Assembly (NCBI GenBank): GCA_048886305.1
Contig: JBHLKV010000003.1
Location: forward strand, 1-45,108
DNA from: Candidatus Hodarchaeota archaeon
GTDB lineage: Archaea; Asgardarchaeota; Lokiarchaeia; Sigyniarchaeales; SOKP01
Length of the DNA: 45,108 nucleotides
Direction: 5' to 3'
The notes beneath the pieces were generated by a model. That model ran no database searches. It saw only the letters and a program-made list of their open reading frames with translations, and was not told where the DNA came from. This document shows positions 808 through 10,124 of the stretch, piece after piece; position 1 is the first letter of the stretch; each line of letters starts with the position of its first letter. Made by a program: the position numbers and the translations under genes.

Positions 808-3003
808 TCACTCACTCCTTTGTTTACTTTTAAATTTAGAATAAAGCGCTTTATCTAACAATTTCCCTATTCTTTGGGCAATTTGTTTACCAATTTCATA
901 TCGTTCGCCATCAAGTAAATTTCTCATTGCTTCTGGAGAGGGATTATCCCCTAACCTTCTAAACAAGACATTTTTTGTAATTTCAATTACGATATCTTTA
1001 ATATTTACATAATCGGGTAATTTAATGCCGGGATTAAAGCTATTGATTTTCTCTACTGCAAATTGGAAAAATTGACTAAATAGCTCTATTGGGTCTCCTT
1101 TTAATTCACTATGAAGTTTTAAATTATCAGTAGCAATTTTTGTATCCTTTTCTTGCCAATATAACTGATTTGGATTGATACCAGGACTAGTTATTCTCAT
1201 GAGGGAACTTGTAATTCTACGTTCTATCCAATTTAAGGTACTTATTTCCTGTTTTTCACGTATTTCTTTCTTTTTTTCTTCTTCTTCTTTTTCTTTAGAT
1301 TTTATTATTTGTTCTACTTTTGATTTACGTTGTTCTTCGAACTCTTCAAACCTTTTGATTAAATCATATCCAATGCAGTAAGAAATTGGTGAGATTAGAT
1401 CTGGCTTTAACTTTAATTGCGAAATGCCGAAATATACATAGCTATTTTTCTCTCGTAATTCCATAATTCCCTGTCTTAATGGAATTCCCATCAATCGTGC
1501 CAATATAAAACCATTGACTAAAAATGGTTGATTATCCGCATTAAATACAATAACTAACTCTTCTTGTCTCTTATTTAATTTTTCTATTACTAATTCCTCT
1601 AACTTAACCTTAACCCATTCTTCAGAATCAGTAGTTCCAAATATTTTTCGTAAAGCTAGAAGAAATAAAGTTTTGTCATTTGAAATTTTAAGATATAGTT
1701 CAATAATTCGACTAAGTTGCCTTAATATTTTTGATAATATATAAAAAAAGATATCTTTCACTAACTTATCCATAATATCTTCAAATTCTAGGACAAATAA
1801 GATATGAGCATAGTTTTTTAATCCTAATTCCTTTAAAAAGATTTTATCAATAACCTGCTTTTTTCTCTGATCAGTTGGATTGATAAGATCATTCTTTGCT
1901 ATACTATATCTGACCAAATTTCTCCTTACTTCTTCAGTAACCGACTCGTCTATATTCATGAGGTAAAGGATATTATGGACTCCATATCTATTTAACGTAT
2001 AGATTAAATCATTAAAACTACATTCATTTAGACTTTGTAGAAAATAAATAAAATCATTTGGATTAATTTTTAATTGTTTAAATAACTCAGATTTTAAGAA
2101 GCTCACAATATTTTGTTCAAATTGTTCATAATTAATTTTTTCTTTAAGCGCATTTTCTATTCTTTTCAGTAGTTCTTTTTTAAGGTTGTTTGTTTCTTTA
2201 AAGATTTTTAATCCAGGAATAGAAATTGGAAACCGATCAAAGTTATAATCAAAGATTTTCCGTTTTATCATTCTAACCGGCATTGCCTGTACCTGAAGTT
2301 CTTTATATGATTTGAATTCAAAATCTTTTCGGATTTTGTCAATCATTCGTCCTAAGGTTGCTAATTCGATAAATTTATCTTCTTTCTCTTCTCTTTCTAA
2401 TTTTTTTTCAATTTCCAGTGATAAATCTTTAAAAGCTGAGCTTTCTTCTAAGATTTCTAATTTAGTTTCTTCAGTTAATCCTATCAAATCCCCTATTAAA
2501 TCATAAAAATAAAAAGGAGGGTATTTTAATATGATTTCTAATAATTCTTGTTCAACTTTTTGTTCAATTTCATTCAGCATTTGCTTCCTTTGAAAGTCTG
2601 GAAGTGTAGATTCTCTTTCTTCGATTAGGAATGATATAAATCTATTCTCTAAATCAAAAATCTTATTTAAAACCCCAATTTCTAAAATAAATGAATCTTT
2701 TAATAACGTACCGACTTCTTCTATTAAAATCTTTTTCTCAATTTGTTCTAAATTTTGTGCTGCCTCAAAGGAAAATTTATCTTGTTCTAAGGTTTCTTTA
2801 ACTCTAATACCTAAATTGTGATAAATGTGAATTACAGCTGTAGCAATTAATAGGTCTTTGAAAGTGGTTTTTTGACTTGTTAATTCGAAAATTTTTTGCT
2901 TATCAGCATCTCTCTTAAAATGGGAAATAATTAAATCTACAGTTTGAAAAAATCTAAATGTACTTTCAACGGCAGTTGTTTTTCTTTTTATCCCACTAAT
3001 CAT
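808..3003 (-). CDS. large uncharacterised all-helical protein (731 aa), translationally coupled to the upstream 768-aa gene
   Basis: Long uninterrupted ORF. I place the start at the ATG at 3003 (M6 of the track ORF), which forms an ATGA start/stop overlap with the TGA (3002..3000) of the upstream gene and follows a GGAG. The sequence is K/E-rich and helical, including KEKEEEEKKKE. No P-loop, nuclease, methylase or metal-binding motif seen. Confidence 0.6.
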   Translation of the reverse strand: MISGIKRKTTAVESTFRFFQTVDLIISHFKRDADKQKIFELTSQKTTFKDLLIATAVIHIYHNLGIRVKETLEQDKFSFEAAQNLEQIEKKILIEEVGTLLKDSFILEIGVLNKIFDLENRFISFLIEERESTLPDFQRKQMLNEIEQKVEQELLEIILKYPPFYFYDLIGDLIGLTEETKLEILEESSAFKDLSLEIEKKLEREEKEDKFIELATLGRMIDKIRKDFEFKSYKELQVQAMPVRMIKRKIFDYNFDRFPISIPGLKIFKETNNLKKELLKRIENALKEKINYEQFEQNIVSFLKSELFKQLKINPNDFIYFLQSLNECSFNDLIYTLNRYGVHNILYLMNIDESVTEEVRRNLVRYSIAKNDLINPTDQRKKQVIDKIFLKELGLKNYAHILFVLEFEDIMDKLVKDIFFYILSKILRQLSRIIELYLKISNDKTLFLLALRKIFGTTDSEEWVKVKLEELVIEKLNKRQEELVIVFNADNQPFLVNGFILARLMGIPLRQGIMELREKNSYVYFGISQLKLKPDLISPISYCIGYDLIKRFEEFEEQRKSKVEQIIKSKEKEEEEKKKEIREKQEISTLNWIERRITSSLMRITSPGINPNQLYWQEKDTKIATDNLKLHSELKGDPIELFSQFFQFAVEKINSFNPGIKLPDYVNIKDIVIEITKNVLFRRLGDNPSPEAMRNLLDGERYEIGKQIAQRIGKLLDKALYSKFKSKQRSE

Positions 3004-5306
3004 AGCTCCTTTAACCACTCCCGATATACTTCTTTAAAATTATCTGCTAATTCAAATCTAGAATTAGTATGCCAAAACTTAAAGCTTAATACGTGAAAAA
3101 GATCTCCCCCAAACAATTCTTTTTCTTCGCTTGTTAAATTGTGTTTTAAAATTAGAGTTAATGGTCTAGGAATCAATTTTGAAAAATATTTTAATTCCAT
3201 CTCTTTGATATAATCATAAAAATGGTCCTCACCATTTAGATTAAAAAAGTTAATAGGAACTTGCTCTTCAAATTGAGGGTTAAGTATGCTCATTTCTTGT
3301 TTGATTCTATTATTAACATACTTCGGAAATTCAGTACTAATATTCATGCTTAAATCATATTGCTTGTAAAAATCAATTAATAAATCCCTTTCCTCAATAT
3401 TCGATATCCGAGCAATATATGTATCCAAAAATTTTAAAAAATGCTCAAACTTCTGCTCATTTGATTCTCTTTCTTCAAAATAGCTAATAAAATCATTGTA
3501 TATCTCGTCTAAAGTCCATTCTTTTCTTTCTTCTAAATTAAAGAATTTTTTGTTATAATCACTTAACCATTCCAAAATATAAGATTTCCAGGTTAAATTT
3601 ATTCCCCCTATTCTTTTTTCTAAAAAGCGATGAAATCTCGTAGCAAAAGTAACTGGATCGGCTATTTCTTTATCAGGTTCTTCTTTGATATACCTATTAA
3701 TTGTTGTATACCTAAGAATATAGCTTAGGAGATAAGATAATTCACTCGAAAATGTCTTAAATCTATCAATATGCTCTCTTATAGTGTTAATATCTTTTTC
3801 CATTTGTATTTCCGCAAAAGACACTAAATCTCCTATCTCTAGTTTTATGTTATCAAAAAATGGCTCTAAATTTGTATTAATTAATCTCCTAAACTCTCTT
3901 ATTATATTTTCTTCATTGAATTTGAGAACTCCTGATAAAACCATTGGATTAACTTCAATTTGGCTAAGAATATGATCTTTAAACTTGTCTATTAATTTCT
4001 GACCAAGGACTTTCGCTGGTTTTTGTTCATCTTCGAATTTTTGTTTTAAATTTTTTGTTAAATCAACAATTAAGGATTTTAGCCTCCTACGCGAGAGATA
4101 TTTTGGAAGAGATGCTTTAACCAAATTCAGACTACTTGTAATAATTTCTGAAAAATAATTAAAGATCGAGCTTAAATCTATTGCTCTTAAGTTTTCTTGC
4201 GCAATTGCTGATTGCTTAATTGTTTTAATCGCTAAATTACTAATATCTTCAAAATCTTCATTTTCAAATTTTGCTTTATTTACAATAAACTGTTTATATT
4301 TTTTTGATAGTTCATCCAGATCTCCAATTTCTCCAGTTGTAAGAAAAGAGTTAGAATATTCAATGAACTTATTCAAATATCTTTCTAAATCAATTAAAAT
4401 TTTATTAATAAAGGAAATTAACGATTTTGCTGGGCAAGGATCATTTAAGTTTTGTATATTTTTTTTAGTATAGTTAATAATGAATGAGATTATTCTATCT
4501 TGAGATTCATCAATTGTACCTGTATTTGCTAAATTAATTAGATTTGTTCCTAACTTTAAGGTTTTATCCACTATAAAATTAGCACTAGGCTCTGATATAG
4601 AATATTTAATATGGTCGATGGATTGCTGCCCCTCATAAGGGCTTTTTAGTCTATCGAATTTTGAATTGAAAAGATTAATCTCATATGGTCGCTTGTGTAA
4701 TAATATATCTACATCTGATTTGACTCTTGCATATGTATTCAACATTTCTTTTTCTGTTGGAAGGGAAGCACTTATACCGATTAATTTTTTATTCCATTTA
4801 TCTTCAATTATTTCTCCAAAGAGTTTTTTGCTGAATCTAGTGGCAAATCTTTTATATACCTGTTGTTTGTCATCATTTTTTAAATCAGGTCGATCGGTAA
4901 ATTCTTCTACTTCAAAAAATAATTTACTTATCTTATTTATCGCTTCATGAGATTTATGGGCATCTAAATATCCCGTTTCAGGCTTTAATGCAAGTAATAA
5001 ACTTTCACAGTCTTTATATTTACCAGGTATGAAAATCATTGATTTTGGAAAAATATTTACTCGAGCACTTTTCTCATCGAGATTATACAATTCAAATTCG
5101 ATACTAAAAACTTCTGAACCAGTATAATCTCTTAAAATTGCATTATACATCCTTAAATATTCTATAACTCCCTGGGAAAGTTCATTAACTTTTTCTCGAG
5201 TTAATTTTCCCGGACCAATTACATCTCCTACAATGATGTCGTTTGGAGAAGAATATCCATATATTAGTGAAAATTGATAATTGATTGATTCTCGTGTAGT
5301 AATCAT
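3000..5306 (-). CDS. large uncharacterised protein (768 aa): alpha/beta N-terminal domain with a longin/roadblock-like strand-helix pattern, then about 600 aa of helical sequence
   Basis: Long ORF with an ATG start. N-terminus: YQFSLIYGY / IIVGDVIGP (two strands), TREKVNELSQGVIEYLRMYNAILRDY (helix), EVFSIEFELY / ARVNIFPKSMIFIPG (strands). The rest is helical. No enzymatic motif recognised. The fold call is pattern-based only. Confidence 0.55.
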   Translation of the reverse strand: MITTRESINYQFSLIYGYSSPNDIIVGDVIGPGKLTREKVNELSQGVIEYLRMYNAILRDYTGSEVFSIEFELYNLDEKSARVNIFPKSMIFIPGKYKDCESLLLALKPETGYLDAHKSHEAINKISKLFFEVEEFTDRPDLKNDDKQQVYKRFATRFSKKLFGEIIEDKWNKKLIGISASLPTEKEMLNTYARVKSDVDILLHKRPYEINLFNSKFDRLKSPYEGQQSIDHIKYSISEPSANFIVDKTLKLGTNLINLANTGTIDESQDRIISFIINYTKKNIQNLNDPCPAKSLISFINKILIDLERYLNKFIEYSNSFLTTGEIGDLDELSKKYKQFIVNKAKFENEDFEDISNLAIKTIKQSAIAQENLRAIDLSSIFNYFSEIITSSLNLVKASLPKYLSRRRLKSLIVDLTKNLKQKFEDEQKPAKVLGQKLIDKFKDHILSQIEVNPMVLSGVLKFNEENIIREFRRLINTNLEPFFDNIKLEIGDLVSFAEIQMEKDINTIREHIDRFKTFSSELSYLLSYILRYTTINRYIKEEPDKEIADPVTFATRFHRFLEKRIGGINLTWKSYILEWLSDYNKKFFNLEERKEWTLDEIYNDFISYFEERESNEQKFEHFLKFLDTYIARISNIEERDLLIDFYKQYDLSMNISTEFPKYVNNRIKQEMSILNPQFEEQVPINFFNLNGEDHFYDYIKEMELKYFSKLIPRPLTLILKHNLTSEEKELFGGDLFHVLSFKFWHTNSRFELADNFKEVYREWLKEL

Positions 5307-6288: not shown

Positions 6289-6693
6289 ATACAATTTGGA
6301 TCTGATTTAGGGATTAACCATGAAGATATAGAAAAAATAAGTCCGCAAATCACATTTATAACATCTAATGCAGATATAGAAGCAATCGCACTTGTAAGTG
6401 TAGAAGGTTATCAAATAGCCTTTTCTGCGTTGCCCCAATATCAGGTAGATGGTGATCAATTTTGTGGACTGGCCAGTGCTTTATTAATGACTGGAAGATC
6501 AACAATTCAAACTTTATTCCAAGAAGATATAACTGAAATAATTGTAAGGGCTGAGAATGGATATATTGTGGTAACAAATGCAGGACGCTTAGTCATTGTT
6601 TGTGCAGGGACAATTATTGATACTTTAATGAAAACGGTAAAAGTCATGCGAATAGCAGCAAAGAATCTTTATAAAATCTTTGAAGGGCGATAA
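6289..6693 (+). CDS. Roadblock/LC7 (MglB-like) domain protein, probably initiated at a non-canonical ATA
   Basis: Roadblock-like core: IEAIALVSVEGYQIAFS ... GLASALLMTG ... ITEIIVRAENGYIVVTNAGRLVIVC. The track ORF (TTG 6430) cuts off the first helix and strand. The frame is open back to the stop at 6238..6240 with no ATG, GTG or TTG in between. AGGTG (6277..6281) lies 7 nt upstream of the in-frame ATA at 6289, giving a normal 134-aa Roadblock. Confidence 0.6.
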   Translation: MQFGSDLGINHEDIEKISPQITFITSNADIEAIALVSVEGYQIAFSALPQYQVDGDQFCGLASALLMTGRSTIQTLFQEDITEIIVRAENGYIVVTNAGRLVIVCAGTIIDTLMKTVKVMRIAAKNLYKIFEGR

Positions 6694-6813
6694 TAAAGAG
6701 TTATCATTTTTTTACATTTCTGTATATTTTATTGCTTTAATTTTATAAAAAGTACTTTTTGAAACAATTAACTTTTTATTTACTAATATATAATTAAATC
6801 AATAATTTTTTAC

Positions 6814-6885
6814 ATGTTAATATGGTTTAGCTTTATGGCAACTGGAAATTATTTTTCTTGGCAGTGGCCTTGGTCTCGATTGTAA
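6814..6885 (+). promoter_or_regulatory. candidate Trp-rich leader peptide mini-ORF upstream of trpB2 (MLIWFSFMATGNYFSWQWPWSRL)
   Basis: Read directly: ATG 6814 (or the in-frame ATG 6835) to TAA 6883..6885. There are 4 TGG codons in 23, three of them within five codons (6859..6873). A TATA-like TAATATATAA at 6784..6793 lies about 26 nt upstream of the first ATG. The hairpin GGTCT-n8-AGACC (6872..6889) overlaps the last Trp codon and the stop. T-tracts follow at 6926..6945. Confidence 0.4.
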
Positions 6886-7038
6886 GACCCATTGTATTGG
6901 CTTAAACTATATTATACTTTCTCTCTTTTACTAATTTTTAGTTTTCTAAACTATTAGATACTTTTTATAAAAGTGCGTTAACAATATTGATTTCCAATTT
7001 AGTAATGAGACACAAAAAAGTAATTTGTAAAAAAGGTA

Positions 7039-8448
7039 ATGAAAATGGTAGATTATTACAATTCAAGAATTATATTACAACCAAATGAAGTACCGAAGGA
7101 ATGGGTTAATATTTTACCTGATTTGCCCTCTCCTATGACGCCCTTAGTAAATCCAATGGATGGGAAACCAGCTCCACCAGAACTGGCGTTGGCAATATTT
7201 CCAAAAGAATGCGTTATGCAAGAAATATCTCAAGAACCAACAATTCCTATCCCAAAAGATCTTAGGGAAATTTTTGCTAAAACTTATAGACCAACTCCTC
7301 TTCATCGGGCATTAGGATTAGAAAAAGAATTGGGAATAGAAGGTGATGATATAAGGATCTTTTATAAAAATGAATCTGTCTCTCCAACAGGATCTCATAA
7401 ACCAAATACTGCTATAACCCAAGCATATTATGCAAAACAAGATGGAATTGAAGAATTGGTTACGGAAACAGGAGCAGGGCAATGGGGATCGGGCCTCTCC
7501 TATGGATGTAATTTATTTGGCATAAAATGTACAGTTTACATGGTAAGAGTTAGCTTTTTGCAAAAACCAGGGAGAAAGATTTTAATGAGGTCCTTTAATG
7601 CAGAAGTTCATGCAAGTCCCTCAAGGCTCACTGAATCAGGCAAATCATTCTTAGAAAAAGACCCAGAACATCCTGGGAGTTTAGGAATAGCTATATCTGA
7701 AGCATTGGAACATAGTTTAAGAAGTGATACCGCCAGATATTCTCTTGGAAGTGTTGTTAATTTTGTTCTTTTACATCAGACAATTGTAGGACAAGAAACA
7801 AAACTTCAATTAGCAAAAGCTGGTATTGATAAACCAGATATAATAATTGGTTGCATGGGTGGAGGTTCTAACTTTGCTGGCTTAATGATTCCTTTTGCAA
7901 GAGATAAACTACATGGAGTTCTTCCAGACGTTGAAATTATTGGTGTTGAACCACGAGCTTGTCCTAGTGTTTGTAAAGGAGAATATCGCTGGGATTTTGG
8001 AGATACTTCTATGAAAGGACCTATTGTAAAAATGCACACGTTAGGTCATTCGTTTGTTCCAAGCCCAATTCATGCAGGAGGATTAAGATACCATGGAATA
8101 GCGCCTATAATTTCAATTTTGTATAATAGTAAAGTTATGTCCGCAGCTATGCATCATCAATCCGAAGTGATTAAATCCGGTCTTTTATTTGCAAATACAG
8201 AAGGGATCCTTCCTGCCCCCGAAACTGCACATGCCGTAAAGGAAGCAATAGATCAGGCATTAAAAGCTAAAGAAGATAATGAAAAGAAAACAATCGTCTT
8301 CAACTTTAGTGGTCATGGCTTTTTTGATTTATTAGCATATAAGCTATATATGACTGGTGAGTTAGAAGACTATGAATTACCAACTGAAGAAATCCAAAAA
8401 GCATTATCATCAGAAGAAATGCCAAAAATTGATGAAGCTCAAATTTAA
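7039..8448 (+). CDS. trpB2: tryptophan synthase beta chain, TrpB2 (long, stand-alone) class
   Basis: PLP-lysine motif PTGSHKPNTA, plus TETGAGQWGS and GGGSNFAG. The N-terminal extension VPKEWVNILPDLP...RPTPLHRA is typical of TrpB2. No other trp genes in the window. Confidence 0.85.
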   Translation: MKMVDYYNSRIILQPNEVPKEWVNILPDLPSPMTPLVNPMDGKPAPPELALAIFPKECVMQEISQEPTIPIPKDLREIFAKTYRPTPLHRALGLEKELGIEGDDIRIFYKNESVSPTGSHKPNTAITQAYYAKQDGIEELVTETGAGQWGSGLSYGCNLFGIKCTVYMVRVSFLQKPGRKILMRSFNAEVHASPSRLTESGKSFLEKDPEHPGSLGIAISEALEHSLRSDTARYSLGSVVNFVLLHQTIVGQETKLQLAKAGIDKPDIIIGCMGGGSNFAGLMIPFARDKLHGVLPDVEIIGVEPRACPSVCKGEYRWDFGDTSMKGPIVKMHTLGHSFVPSPIHAGGLRYHGIAPIISILYNSKVMSAAMHHQSEVIKSGLLFANTEGILPAPETAHAVKEAIDQALKAKEDNEKKTIVFNFSGHGFFDLLAYKLYMTGELEDYELPTEEIQKALSSEEMPKIDEAQI

Positions 8449-8557: not shown

Positions 8558-9553
8558 TTGAATGTTTTTTCAATAGTAATTTTAAGTTTTTTCTATACAT
8601 ATAGTTTAATTTTATTTTACATAGCCTTTTTAGCAAAAAGTAAAGGAGAAAAAAAAGCATTCATTAATAATTTTGTAAATGCTTTAGTTTTGGTTATATC
8701 GCTTACCATTAATATGGAAATTCATTTTTTTCTAAACACACCTTACAATGAATTCATTGTTTTTCCTTTTGATCTTTTGATGATAAGTTTTATCGGAATA
8801 TTTTTTCCGATATTTTCTTTATTTATGTTTCGTGAGAAAAACAAAAATAAAAACAGGAAAGAAACTGACATTAAACCACATATACAATTACCTCTAAAAT
8901 ATGATATTTACAGAAAGTTAACCCATCTAGTTGTTTTAGGAATAATTTTTTCTTATTTTACACTGGGTTTTAACATAAATGGAGATAAAATGTATTTTTC
9001 TCAAAATTTAGTTATTTTCTTGGTTGGAATCTCATTAATTGGATTATTAACTGCTGAATTTATTAGAATATTAAACCCTGAAATTTACCCTCTTAAACAG
9101 GTTAATCAAATATTACGAGAAAAGGAATTGCATATGAGATTCGGACCTCATATTTCTATGAGTATTGGGTGTTTTTCAATAATTCTTTTATTTGGGTTAA
9201 TTCAACCAATAGGGCCAGTTGTGATCTGTACCGCAATGACTATGGCAATTTTTGGAGATATAGCATCAAATTTAATTGGAAGATTGATAGGAAAAACTAA
9301 TATTCGCAATACAAATAAAACATATGAAGGATTATTGGCGGGTATGGCAGTATCATTTACTTCAGGGATTATTATACTAATATTGTTAAGGAGCTTTTAT
9401 GATCCAAGCATTCTAGGCTTTTTTTTAATTCCTATATTAGGGGCATTGATTATCGGGGGAATTGACTATTTAGATTTTGAAATTGATGATAATTTGACCT
9501 TTAATTTTATTTTATCAACAGTTTTATTTTTTATTTCATTTTTTTTTTTATAA
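8558..9553 (+). CDS. polytopic membrane protein, polyprenol/dolichol kinase - cytidylyltransferase superfamily (tentative)
   Basis: About 8 hydrophobic segments. The C-terminal FGDIASNLIGRLIGK resembles the D-x-x-A-x-x-x-G-x-x-x-G motif of CTP-dependent dolichol/phytol kinases and CDP-diglyceride synthases. TTG start. Confidence 0.45.
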   Translation: MNVFSIVILSFFYTYSLILFYIAFLAKSKGEKKAFINNFVNALVLVISLTINMEIHFFLNTPYNEFIVFPFDLLMISFIGIFFPIFSLFMFREKNKNKNRKETDIKPHIQLPLKYDIYRKLTHLVVLGIIFSYFTLGFNINGDKMYFSQNLVIFLVGISLIGLLTAEFIRILNPEIYPLKQVNQILREKELHMRFGPHISMSIGCFSIILLFGLIQPIGPVVICTAMTMAIFGDIASNLIGRLIGKTNIRNTNKTYEGLLAGMAVSFTSGIIILILLRSFYDPSILGFFLIPILGALIIGGIDYLDFEIDDNLTFNFILSTVLFFISFFFL

Positions 9554-9611
9554 GAGAAATTTAAGTTAATAAGAATTTACCATAAGTTTTTCAATAAGAA
9601 TATTTTAACTG

Positions 9612-10124
9612 ATGAAAATGTTAGAAGAAAAATTAAAAATTGACAAAATCTCTAAAGGAACAGTAATTGATCATATTGATGCTGGTTATGCTCTAACTAT
9701 ACTTAATCTTACCGGATTAGATGAATCTAAGAATTTAATGACTATAGGTGTCAATGTGTCTTCTAAAAAATTCCAAACAAAAGATATTATTAAAATTGAA
9801 AATGTATTTCTAAATGAAACTCAAATGCAACAAATTTCAATTCTCTCACCGAATGCAACCATTTCATTAATAGAAAATTATAAGGTAATTGAGAAGAAAA
9901 AAGTTAAAATCCCAAAAACAATTAAAAAATTAATTCTATGCGTAAATCAAACATGCATTTCCAATTCAGAAAAAGAGCCAATTTCAACCCAGTTCGCAGT
10001 CCTTGAAGAAAAACCATTAAAAATTCAATGTGTTTATTGTGAACGAATCTATAAATTAGAAGAAATTATATTTGCCTCTAAAGAAAGAAAAGAAAAGAAA
10101 GTTAAACAAAGAATTCAATTGTAA
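9612..10124 (+). CDS. pyrI: aspartate carbamoyltransferase regulatory subunit
   Basis: Colinear with E. coli PyrI as I recall it: KISKGTVIDHI, TIGVNV, KDIIKIENVFL. The zinc domain is CVNQTC (C-x4-C) ... CVYC (C-x2-C). Confidence 0.85.
   Translation: MKMLEEKLKIDKISKGTVIDHIDAGYALTILNLTGLDESKNLMTIGVNVSSKKFQTKDIIKIENVFLNETQMQQISILSPNATISLIENYKVIEKKKVKIPKTIKKLILCVNQTCISNSEKEPISTQFAVLEEKPLKIQCVYCERIYKLEEIIFASKERKEKKVKQRIQL

Follow-up and report, generated by a model that had tools for sequence, protein, structure and literature searches.

The trpB2 locus and its leader

The window analyzed here is a stretch of 45,108 nucleotides (nt) of contig JBHLKV010000003.1 (assembly GCA_048886305.1) from Candidatus Hodarchaeota archaeon, with a G+C content of 28.9%. 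The gene upstream of trpB2, encoding a Roadblock/LC7 protein, ends at position 6693 and therefore leaves a spacer of ~345 nt in front of trpB2, a full-length gene of 469 codons matching the profiles NF009057 (TrpB-like pyridoxal phosphate enzyme; 631 bits) and TIGR01415 (583 bits). The spacer contains a short open reading frame (ORF) with closely spaced tryptophan codons, and we consider it likely that positions 6769 to 7040 constitute a single cis-regulatory leader of the trpB2 mRNA, in which a translated 16-codon ORF would sense charged tRNA-Trp. The G+C content of the spacer is 10 to 23% apart from a patch of 40% at 6820-6919, in agreement with the single G+C-richer patch described in an earlier examination of the same DNA made from its letters alone (the sequence-only reading). 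ARAGORN detected no tRNA in this patch, and no Rfam family matched positions 6650 to 7100, even at an E value of up to 10. At the gathering score, Rfam gave no match in the leader, the window, or seven related loci. The leader and the gene that follows it comprise the following features.

6769 to 6782, + strand: promoter-like block TAACTTTTTATTTA (resembling a B recognition element and TATA box), ~62 nt before the leader start codon ATG 6835, recognized by conservation.
6816 to 6832, + strand: 5' strand of helix H1, GUUAAUAUGGUUUAGCU, pairing with 6899-6917 over 17 base pairs (bp) in the window.
6835 to 6885, + strand: conserved leader ORF of 16 codons encoding MATGNYFSWQWPWSRL, with 65 distinct homologous ORFs.
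6859 to 6873, + strand: three alternating Trp codons (TGG CAG TGG CCT TGG), the proposed sensor codons; the sole match to TGGNNNTGGNNNTGG in the window.
6872 to 6889, + strand: hairpin P1, GGUCU (6872-6876) paired with AGACC (6885-6889), from folding and covariation.
6891 to 6917, + strand: B box (CAUUGG type; AUUGUAUUGGC in the window) followed by the 3' strand of H1, GGCUUAAACUAUAUUAUAC (6899-6917).
6918 to 6972, + strand: U-rich, G-poor spacer with a weak AU hairpin at 6931-6957, a candidate termination or pause region.
6973 to 7012, + strand: block 7, consisting of hairpin P3 (loop AUUUC) and then the motif AAUGAGACAC, from covariation in 52 sequences.
7012 to 7028, + strand: hairpin P4 (ACAAA paired with UUUGU), located 5' of an A-rich stretch and the ribosome-binding site; weakly supported in the clade of the window.
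7035 to 8448, + strand: Shine-Dalgarno-like GGTAAT (7035-7040) and trpB2, the ORF of which opens at ATG 7039; profile matches, and relatives 73 to 94% identical at 66 Asgard loci.

The Shine-Dalgarno-like sequence overlaps the first ATG of the trpB2 ORF (7039), which had been taken as the start of the gene in the sequence-only reading; alignment A1 indicates that the conserved start is probably ATG 7045 (MVDYY...).

The mini-ORF originally noticed extends from ATG 6814 to TAA 6885, encodes MLIWFSFMATGNYFSWQWPWSRL, and has TGG codons at 6823, 6859, 6865, and 6871. Its description as 4 Trp in 23 codons directly upstream of a tryptophan synthase gene was exact in sequence and agrees with the TrpB2 profile matches. 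The choice of ATG 6814 as the start codon has to be revised, since this in-frame codon, and hence the 23-codon form, is specific to the window and its closest relatives, whereas ATG 6835 is the conserved start and ATGGCAACTG is common to the window and most relatives. A 16-residue peptide with 3 Trp, MATGNYFSWQWPWSRL, is the probable functional product. A search of both strands of the 45 kb gave a single match to the pattern TGGNNNTGGNNNTGG, for 0.06 occurrences expected, and at least one match was present in 4 of 100 shuffles. Taken by itself, the window makes a suggestive case of modest significance; the weight of the case comes from conservation and not from single-window statistics.

Conservation of the leader upstream of trpB2

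Relatives were sought in one genome per species, which provided the 66 Asgard (Promethearchaeota) loci, and the search also covered more distant TrpB2 relatives (~55% identity) from other archaea and bacteria. A W-rich mini-ORF, ending 110 to 187 nt before trpB2 and positioned at -265 to -140 relative to the gene, was present at ~56 of the Asgard loci. Its products include MATVRKTSWQWPWHWQ, MTLAKNLAWCWQWPWRWR, MATDKNSFWRWQWPWRF, and MFTEKMAFWRWQWQWRS, and the consensus is M-x7-W-x-W-x-W(-x-W)-x-stop. No W-rich ORF was found at the 14 distant trpB2 loci of the non-Asgard type, including that of Lokiarchaeum ossiferum, which encodes a 56% identical homolog. At the listed related Asgard loci, the TGG-periodic motif matched the leader only, with the exception of four stray matches.

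A scan of 185,579 genomes with a strict block 7 pattern returned 37 sites. All 35 Asgard sites immediately precede trpB2, and a W-rich ORF accompanies 34 of these sites; block 7 as a regulator of other genes was set aside on this basis. The scan added 10 contigs with a W-rich leader, together with new peptide variants. The leader is present in more than 80 species-level Asgard genomes and in two gene contexts (see below for the second). The leader ORF has decayed at three loci, L007, L011, and L054 (remnant CTGCGTGTTGATATAA, with no Trp codons), and block 7 and the ribosome-binding region are kept there.

The alternative of a chance ORF in an AT-rich spacer could draw on the occurrence of the motif in 4% of the shuffles and on fold z-scores close to zero. 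It is refuted by conservation in this number of genomes and in both gene contexts, by the maintenance of the frame, and by the covarying structure described below, and we give it practically no weight.

One contig, JAEOTP010000068.1, carries two trpB2 paralogs ~16 kb apart (loci L004 and L047; 91% and 76% identical to that of the window), each with its own W-rich leader, the peptides being ...MATGNYYFWQWPWSWL and MATEKNTFWRWQWPWRF, respectively.

A homologous module upstream of trpD

Scanning genomes with the motif TGGCAGTGGCCNTGGNNNTGG was swamped by chance matches in G+C-rich bacteria. Among the matches listed, only one was from an Asgard genome (L142), and it was located upstream of trpD; the metagenome-assembled genome (MAG) concerned also has trpB2, without a leader. 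A homologous leader was present at all 17 Asgard trpD loci that were found, adjoining trpD in some cases and separated from it by a small ORF in others, and at none of 63 non-Asgard trpD loci. The peptides encoded upstream of trpD include MTISFANHFGWQWPWRWQ, MANEKIIPFRWHWFWRA, MTTAKNFVWRWQWSWWRWQ, and ...TWFWAWRWHA, and a few leaders are partly decayed (STWFCICCWHA and GWQMPWRY). The sequence-only reading had named the absence of W-rich upstream ORFs from orthologous loci as an observation that would count against it; such ORFs were present at ~56/66 trpB2 and 17/17 trpD loci.

The relationship between the two sets of leaders is not limited to the ORF. An nhmmer profile was built from the trpB2 leaders, the window being left out. 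This profile retrieved positions 6761 to 7054 of the window (E = 6e-49) and 11 of the 17 trpD leaders (E = 1e-13 to 2.5e-39) but none of the non-Asgard loci. Thus, a unit of ~250 to 300 nt forms a homologous module borne by non-homologous trp transcription units, sometimes by both units in the same genome. Such a distribution is what the signal of a Trp regulon should look like. The sole trpD operon examined, that of L201, has the order trpD-trpC-trpF-trpB-(EF-hand protein)-trpA.

Two observations concern the genes associated with these leaders. The small ORF located between the leader and trpD (75 to 99 amino acids [aa]; L202, ~2370-2660; L206, ~4730-4990; L209 and L217, ~4650-4990) encodes proteins sharing the motif ...LIN.R...GPEK..TA(K/R)FI...Y..VY.IL. 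These proteins could be a co-regulated factor or a regulator; no Pfam family matched them, and the ORF was set aside as a candidate regulator. The L201 operon headed by the leader contains between trpB and trpA, at 8783-9232, a gene for a 149-aa protein with four EF-hands.

Maintenance of the leader reading frame

The 65 distinct leader ORFs have a narrow architecture. The start codon is ATG in 59 of them, the length is 15 to 18 codons in 47, the number of Trp codons is 3 to 5 in 61, and the first Trp of the run is codon 9 in 43. The stop codon lies 1 or 2 codons past the last Trp codon in 58/65. Trp accounts for 23% of the residues, for a background of 0.97% in the long ORFs of the window. 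The only universally conserved feature of the ORF is a run of 3 to 5 Trp codons that alternate with other codons and closely precede the stop codon.

A test that presupposes no frame, in which 73 W runs were located by pattern alone, led to the same conclusion. An ATG was found exactly 24 nt 5' of the W run in 50 of the 73. In the 21 nt separating the two, stop triplets were present in 0/50 sequences in frame 0, 25/50 in frame +1, and 23/50 in frame +2. Nineteen different codons are seen between two TGG codons, and TGG itself does not change. Where a G of TGG is paired, variation occurs on the partner side only, pair 21:30 being GC in 14 sequences and GU in 3. The open frame, the retention of TGG, and the restriction of changes to the partner side therefore indicate selection on in-frame Trp codons and not only on RNA pairing.

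These results bear on the possibility that the leader is an untranslated structured RNA, either a riboswitch or a protein-binding site, in which the UGG triplets would contact a Trp-activated protein, as in TRAP leaders, and the ORF would be incidental. Several observations are consistent with this possibility: the leader is heavily structured, with covarying helices; in trpB2 leaders, the nucleotides of the CAG and CCT triplets between the TGG codons are themselves conserved (CAG in 60 cases versus CAA in 2, for a genome with a G+C content of 29%); and a pairing of -9.8 kcal/mol is possible between the start and W regions. Against it, the frame is open from an in-phase ATG in 50/50 sequences and the other frames are stopped in about half of them, the stop codon is placed within 1 or 2 codons of the last UGG in 58/65 ORFs, and the UGG spacing is always exactly one codon. 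In addition, trpD leaders keep the W periodicity with other triplets in between (WFWAWRWHA and RWHWSWRA), the number of repeats (3 to 5) is lower than the 9 to 11 (G/U)AG repeats bound by TRAP, and no Rfam family matches. We consider an untranslated RNA improbable.

If the ORF is translated, the nascent peptide rather than the codons might be the sensor. In a TnaC-type arrest peptide, the W-rich nascent chain together with free Trp would stall the ribosome at the stop codon. The positions of the Trp residues within the last 8 or 9 residues, the stop codon that immediately follows, and the conservation of W-P-W in trpB2 leaders would suit such a mechanism, and a ribosome arrested at the stop codon, which is in the apex of P1, would at the same time keep the hairpin from forming. 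However, only W is conserved between trpB2 and trpD leaders, P and Q being replaced by F, A, H, S, L, and V, and frameshifted C termini with a displaced stop codon are tolerated (L017, L021, and L029). Moreover, genes for biosynthesis or salvage would not be expected to be induced by Trp, and the signature W12, D16, P24-stop is absent. We regard this alternative as very improbable.

The frameshifted leaders result from a 1-nt deletion following W-R. The ORFs (...WRGDTALSLE in L017, ...WRGDNAFA in L021, and ...WRGENALA in L029) run through P1 and end at a TAG in the B box, and the sequence of the hairpin is unchanged.

RNA structure of the leader

RNAalifold detected no structure in the full MAFFT alignment of 52 sequences; the register of the helices varies from clade to clade. 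Folding was therefore done clade by clade and complemented by arm-swap tests, in which the strands of a helix are exchanged between leaders.

Hairpin P1 and helix H1 both involve the ORF. The 5' arm of P1 consists of the last Trp codon and the codon that follows, and the stop codon is in the loop and 3' arm. In other lineages, the arms of P1 are GUUGGC/GCCAAC, AUUGGC/GCCAAU, AGUGGC/GCCACU, GGCGU/ACGCC, GCGUU/AACGC, GGUGC/GCAC, GCACGC/GCGUGC, and GCGCG/CGCGC. The energy was -9.93 kcal/mol with the own arms and -7.95 kcal/mol after swapping, and in clade alignment A2, pair 17:34 displays 6 double changes. H1 encloses the entire ORF. Immediately before the start codon of the ORF, the 5' strand of H1 holds the conserved box ATATGGTTTA, possibly a Shine-Dalgarno-like site as well. 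Compensatory variants of H1 include UGGUUUAGU/ACUAAACCA, UGAUUUA/UAAAUCA, and UUUGGUUUA/UUAAGCCAAA, with energies of -6.42 and -4.22 kcal/mol for own and swapped strands, respectively. For each of the two helices, none of 5,000 permutations was as good as the observed pairing, a count that overstates independence since the sequences are related. The hairpin GGTCT/AGACC, the stem enclosing it, and the downstream T-runs listed in the sequence-only reading are all present, and the 7-bp enclosing stem reported there corresponds to H1, which extends to 17 bp in the window and covaries.

Two further pairings may form around the Trp codons. In one, the W region CAGUGGCC (6862-6869) would be bound by the start region GGCAACUG (6837-6844). 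In the alternative, P0, which is predicted in many single sequences, CAGUG (6862-6866) would pair with positions 6895-6899 at the B box. P0 received no covariation support in the swap test. Weak or absent covariation is accounted for, in both cases, by the conservation of the two sides.

Between the ORF and trpB2, P2, the AU-rich hairpin of the U-rich spacer, covaries in clade 1 and is a minimum-free-energy prediction only in the window. P3, in block 7, has two stems, CGUUA (6976-6980) with UAAUG (7003-7007) and AUAUUG (6984-6989) with CAAUUU (6995-7000). Across the 52 sequences, 85.6% of the cells are paired, for 30 to 57% in slid controls, and double changes are found in 7 of the 12 pairs. 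The covariation score of 0.199, for 0.115 ± 0.011 in shuffles, was reached by none of 500 shuffles. The intermediates are of the RNA type (AU-GU-GC at pair 273:303 and UA-UG-CG at pair 275:301), G-U outnumbering A-C by 25 to 15. For P4, a counterpart is predicted in clade 1 (CACAUC-UUAA-GAUGUG), and variants recognized by eye include ACAU/AUGU and ACACA/UGUGU. In clade 1 (17 sequences), RNAalifold returned six helices, namely, a small GGC/GCC stem, P1, P2, the two stems of P3, and P4. These helices are 96.4% paired (26 to 51% when slid), with 8 double-change pairs compared to 1.6 ± 1.1 in shuffles.

Together, these results indicate that the whole stretch between the ORF and the ribosome-binding site of trpB2 has the properties of a structured sense-strand RNA, and a single transcript for the ORF and trpB2 is therefore most likely. 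P3 and P4 may form a second layer of control, acting on translation or stability, or a binding site for a protein; both persist at L007, L011, and L054, where the ORF has decayed. The idea that block 7 mimics the anticodon loop of tRNA-Trp (UCCAA) was rejected because the covarying register places CCAA in a stem.

The proposal of the sequence-only reading that the ORF encodes a Trp-sensing leader peptide is supported by the conservation of the ORF, its maintained frame, and the covariation of P1 and H1, with Trp regulation as the presumed function. As in leader-peptide attenuators, Trp codons are enriched upstream of trpB2 and trpD, the ORF is maintained in orthologous leaders, and the regulatory codons overlap a helix, the last Trp codon and the stop codon being part of P1 and the ORF being surrounded by H1.

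Candidate promoter and termination signals

Positions T6774, T6775, and A6778 of the promoter-like block are invariant in 52 aligned leaders and are the sole invariant positions 5' of the ORF. TATA-like boxes are seen by eye at a similar distance in trpD leaders. The position of the conserved block implies a 5' untranslated region (UTR) of ~30 nt, which holds the 5' strand of H1. The leaderless transcript envisaged in the sequence-only reading does not fit this arrangement, and the TATA-like box at 6784-6793 on which it relied is less conserved than the block at 6769-6782.

Downstream of the ORF, the window has T-runs at 6926-6929, 6935-6939, 6942-6945, and 6962-6966. In 71 leaders, the region from +20 to +80 past the stop codon consists of 50% T, 30% A, 14% C, and 6% G, and runs of at least 5 T are present in 52/71 leaders versus 13/71 for runs of at least 5 A. 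Archaeal RNA polymerases and the factor aCPSF1/FttA use U-rich, G-poor tracts of this kind for termination. The combination of an AU-rich P2 and a U-run was seen in one clade.

The T-rich tracts could also mark the end of an independent small gene encoding a trans-acting RNA or peptide. The rnTrpL/peTrpL pair of Sinorhizobium is the model for this possibility, according to which trpB2 would be transcribed from its own promoter at ~6960-6990 and block 7 would be the DNA operator of a Trp repressor. In addition to the T-rich tracts 3' of the ORF, this explanation can invoke the TATA-like sequence TTTTTATAAAA at 6962-6972 and the near-palindrome of block 7, which survives where the ORF is lost. 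Control of archaeal trp operons by repressors such as TrpY is known (PMC1854888). Block 7 nonetheless shows the GU intermediates expected of RNA; sense-strand covariation is also seen for the AU hairpin and P4, and transcription starting within block 7 would cut these helices; and the whole module, not the ORF alone, is common to the trpB2 and trpD contexts. The second TATA-like box, which the sequence-only reading had already pointed out, lies between P2 and P3 within the structured RNA, and several clades (L043 and L050 types) conserve it poorly. We attach a low probability to an independent gene.

Proposed mode of action

According to the reading that we favor, in which the leader is cis-acting and its Trp codons are the sensor, transcription would start from the promoter ~62 nt 5' of the leader ATG and a ribosome would load on the leader ORF as RNA polymerase proceeds. 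If charged tRNA-Trp is plentiful, the ribosome would complete the short ORF and depart, allowing the leader to fold into a compact domain. H1 would then close and bury the start region of the leader, and P1, possibly with P0, would bury the Trp codons and the stop codon. Since the folded domain would end at the U-rich, G-poor tract, the polymerase would stop there, or expression would otherwise be shut down. If charged tRNA-Trp is scarce, the ribosome would stall on UGG codons, each of which would offer one chance of stalling. A ribosome held on these codons would cover the 5' arm of P1 within H1 and thereby keep the leader domain from folding, and transcription or expression would continue into trpB2. 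In genomes with the full pathway, the homologous module would control the trpD operon likewise.

Translation of the ORF, its response to Trp, and the nature of the controlled step are what we infer from sequence comparisons. The controlled step is premature termination with a probability that we place just short of even. Control of translation or mRNA stability through P3 and P4 appears rather unlikely, and any other step appears quite improbable. The specific proposal of a true ribosome-mediated attenuation in Asgard archaea, in which a ribosome stalled on the leader Trp codons would decide termination at the U-tracts by a one-domain design devoid of an antiterminator and independent of a bacterial origin, is tentative, and we hold it to be somewhat more likely wrong than right.

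The output step, probably premature termination at the U-tracts, is the weak point of the mechanism. The U-runs begin 15 to 55 nt past the stop codon and do not abut a stem. Archaeal RNA polymerases terminate at oligo-T without a hairpin, which makes the role of the hairpin puzzling, and archaeal termination is not known to need hairpins. Folding and swap tests revealed no mutually exclusive antiterminator and terminator structures. In particular, removal of the 5' part of the leader, mimicking a stalled ribosome, did not lower the probability of P2 (0.72 versus 0.66). A possible long-range interaction of the B box with block 7 showed no covariation either. Further observations also weigh against our interpretation. 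The folds in the window are unremarkable (-11.1 kcal/mol and z = -0.24 for 6856-6906; z = -1.03 for the whole leader), the relatedness of the sequences makes the permutation counts overstate independence, and in some clades H1 is missing or the B box is paired with a different upstream segment. Finally, the loss of the ORF at L007, L011, and L054 with retention of block 7 implies that block 7 may act independently.

Two pairing schemes were considered and rejected. A 1:2/2:3/3:4 arrangement can be drawn in the window (AAACUA at 6904 and 6948 versus UAGUUU at 6939) and is not conserved. In a few lineages (L037 and L060), the B box (AUUGGA) could pair with UCCAAU in block 7, but many lineages break this pairing and the swap test was negative.

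Comparison with known systems

Leader-peptide attenuation is the textbook example of a regulation that depends on translating an RNA during its synthesis, and the literature searched describes it for bacteria only. Similar to the bacterial trpL leader (Rfam Trp_leader), the Asgard leader has a short ORF with Trp codons clustered before its stop codon, directly upstream of trp biosynthesis genes. The ORF is contained in helices that a translating ribosome must melt, a U-rich stretch follows, and the start region of the ORF is buried in the folded form. In contrast to trpL, the Asgard leader is archaeal and has no similarity to it in sequence or model (no match to Rfam Trp_leader). Its Trp codons alternate (W-x-W-x-W) instead of being in tandem, its stop codon is inside a hairpin, and a helix encloses the ORF. 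No antiterminator/terminator pair was detected, the U-runs are not beside a G+C-rich stem, and between the ORF and the gene lie ~150 nt that contain three more conserved hairpins. Termination rules also differ between archaea and bacteria. The sequence-only reading had seen in the layout a mirror of the bacterial four-segment attenuator, and this resemblance does not hold because no antiterminator alternative was found.

Other systems share single aspects of the Asgard leader. The Cys-rich short ORF attenuators of mycobacteria (bioRxiv 10.1101/834739) also control an operon by an upstream run of codons specific for one amino acid, outside the proteobacterial scheme; in contrast to these mycobacterial leaders, the Asgard leader has, judging from its TATA-like block, a 5' UTR of ~30 nt, and its main gene begins ~155 nt downstream. 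In the tna leader, which encodes TnaC, a Trp-related leader peptide and the occupancy of the region of the stop codon by the ribosome likewise decide downstream transcription (PMC8429421). TnaC responds to free Trp through a particular sequence of its nascent chain, and the operon that it induces is catabolic (PMC8429421), whereas the Asgard leaders conserve the Trp codons only and precede biosynthetic genes. The Asgard leader and the TRAP leader of Bacillus both have periodic triplets in a trp leader RNA. TRAP sites consist of 9 to 11 (G/U)AG repeats with spacers of 2 or 3 nt and no maintained ORF. Unlike these, the 3 to 5 UGG triplets of the Asgard leader have an exact spacing of 3 nt and are in frame between an ATG and a stop codon. 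There was no indication of a T-box riboswitch, as judged from the absence of an Rfam match and of a tRNA-like element detected by ARAGORN.

In archaea, trp genes are controlled by DNA-binding repressors, such as TrpY of Methanothermobacter, which binds promoter DNA (cited in PMC1854888). The Asgard element would share with TrpY a Trp-responsive control of archaeal trp genes and differs from it in being a structured RNA leader that is predicted to be translated. In the literature searched, archaeal trp regulation is described through DNA-binding regulators only (PMC1854888), and a paper on transcription-translation coupling in haloarchaea mentions attenuation as a bacterial phenomenon only (PMC8576121). 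That literature contained no description of a leader peptide or of attenuation in archaea, Asgard archaea included; its coverage is incomplete, and an earlier description is possible.

If the proposed reading is correct, leader-peptide attenuation would extend to a second domain of life, upstream of two unrelated trp transcription units. For the archaeal lineage closest to eukaryotes, it would mean that transcription and translation are functionally coupled and that termination is sensitive to hairpins, and it would show how archaeal termination can become conditional. The question of transcription-translation coupling in Asgard archaea becomes testable at these loci. The sequence signature can be used to annotate trp regulons in Asgard MAGs, and comparable leaders for other amino acids appear worth seeking in Asgard genomes.

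Other observations in the window

Two regions of the window distant from the leader deserve mention. Downstream of trpB2, in the region 8558-10124, the pyrI gene (9612-10124), encoding the regulatory chain of aspartate carbamoyltransferase, is preceded not by pyrB but by an ORF of 331 aa that has no Pfam or NCBIfam match. On the minus strand, region 808-5306 consists of two long overlapping ORFs of 736 aa (808-3018) and 768 aa (3000-5306), the second of which has no match in Pfam.

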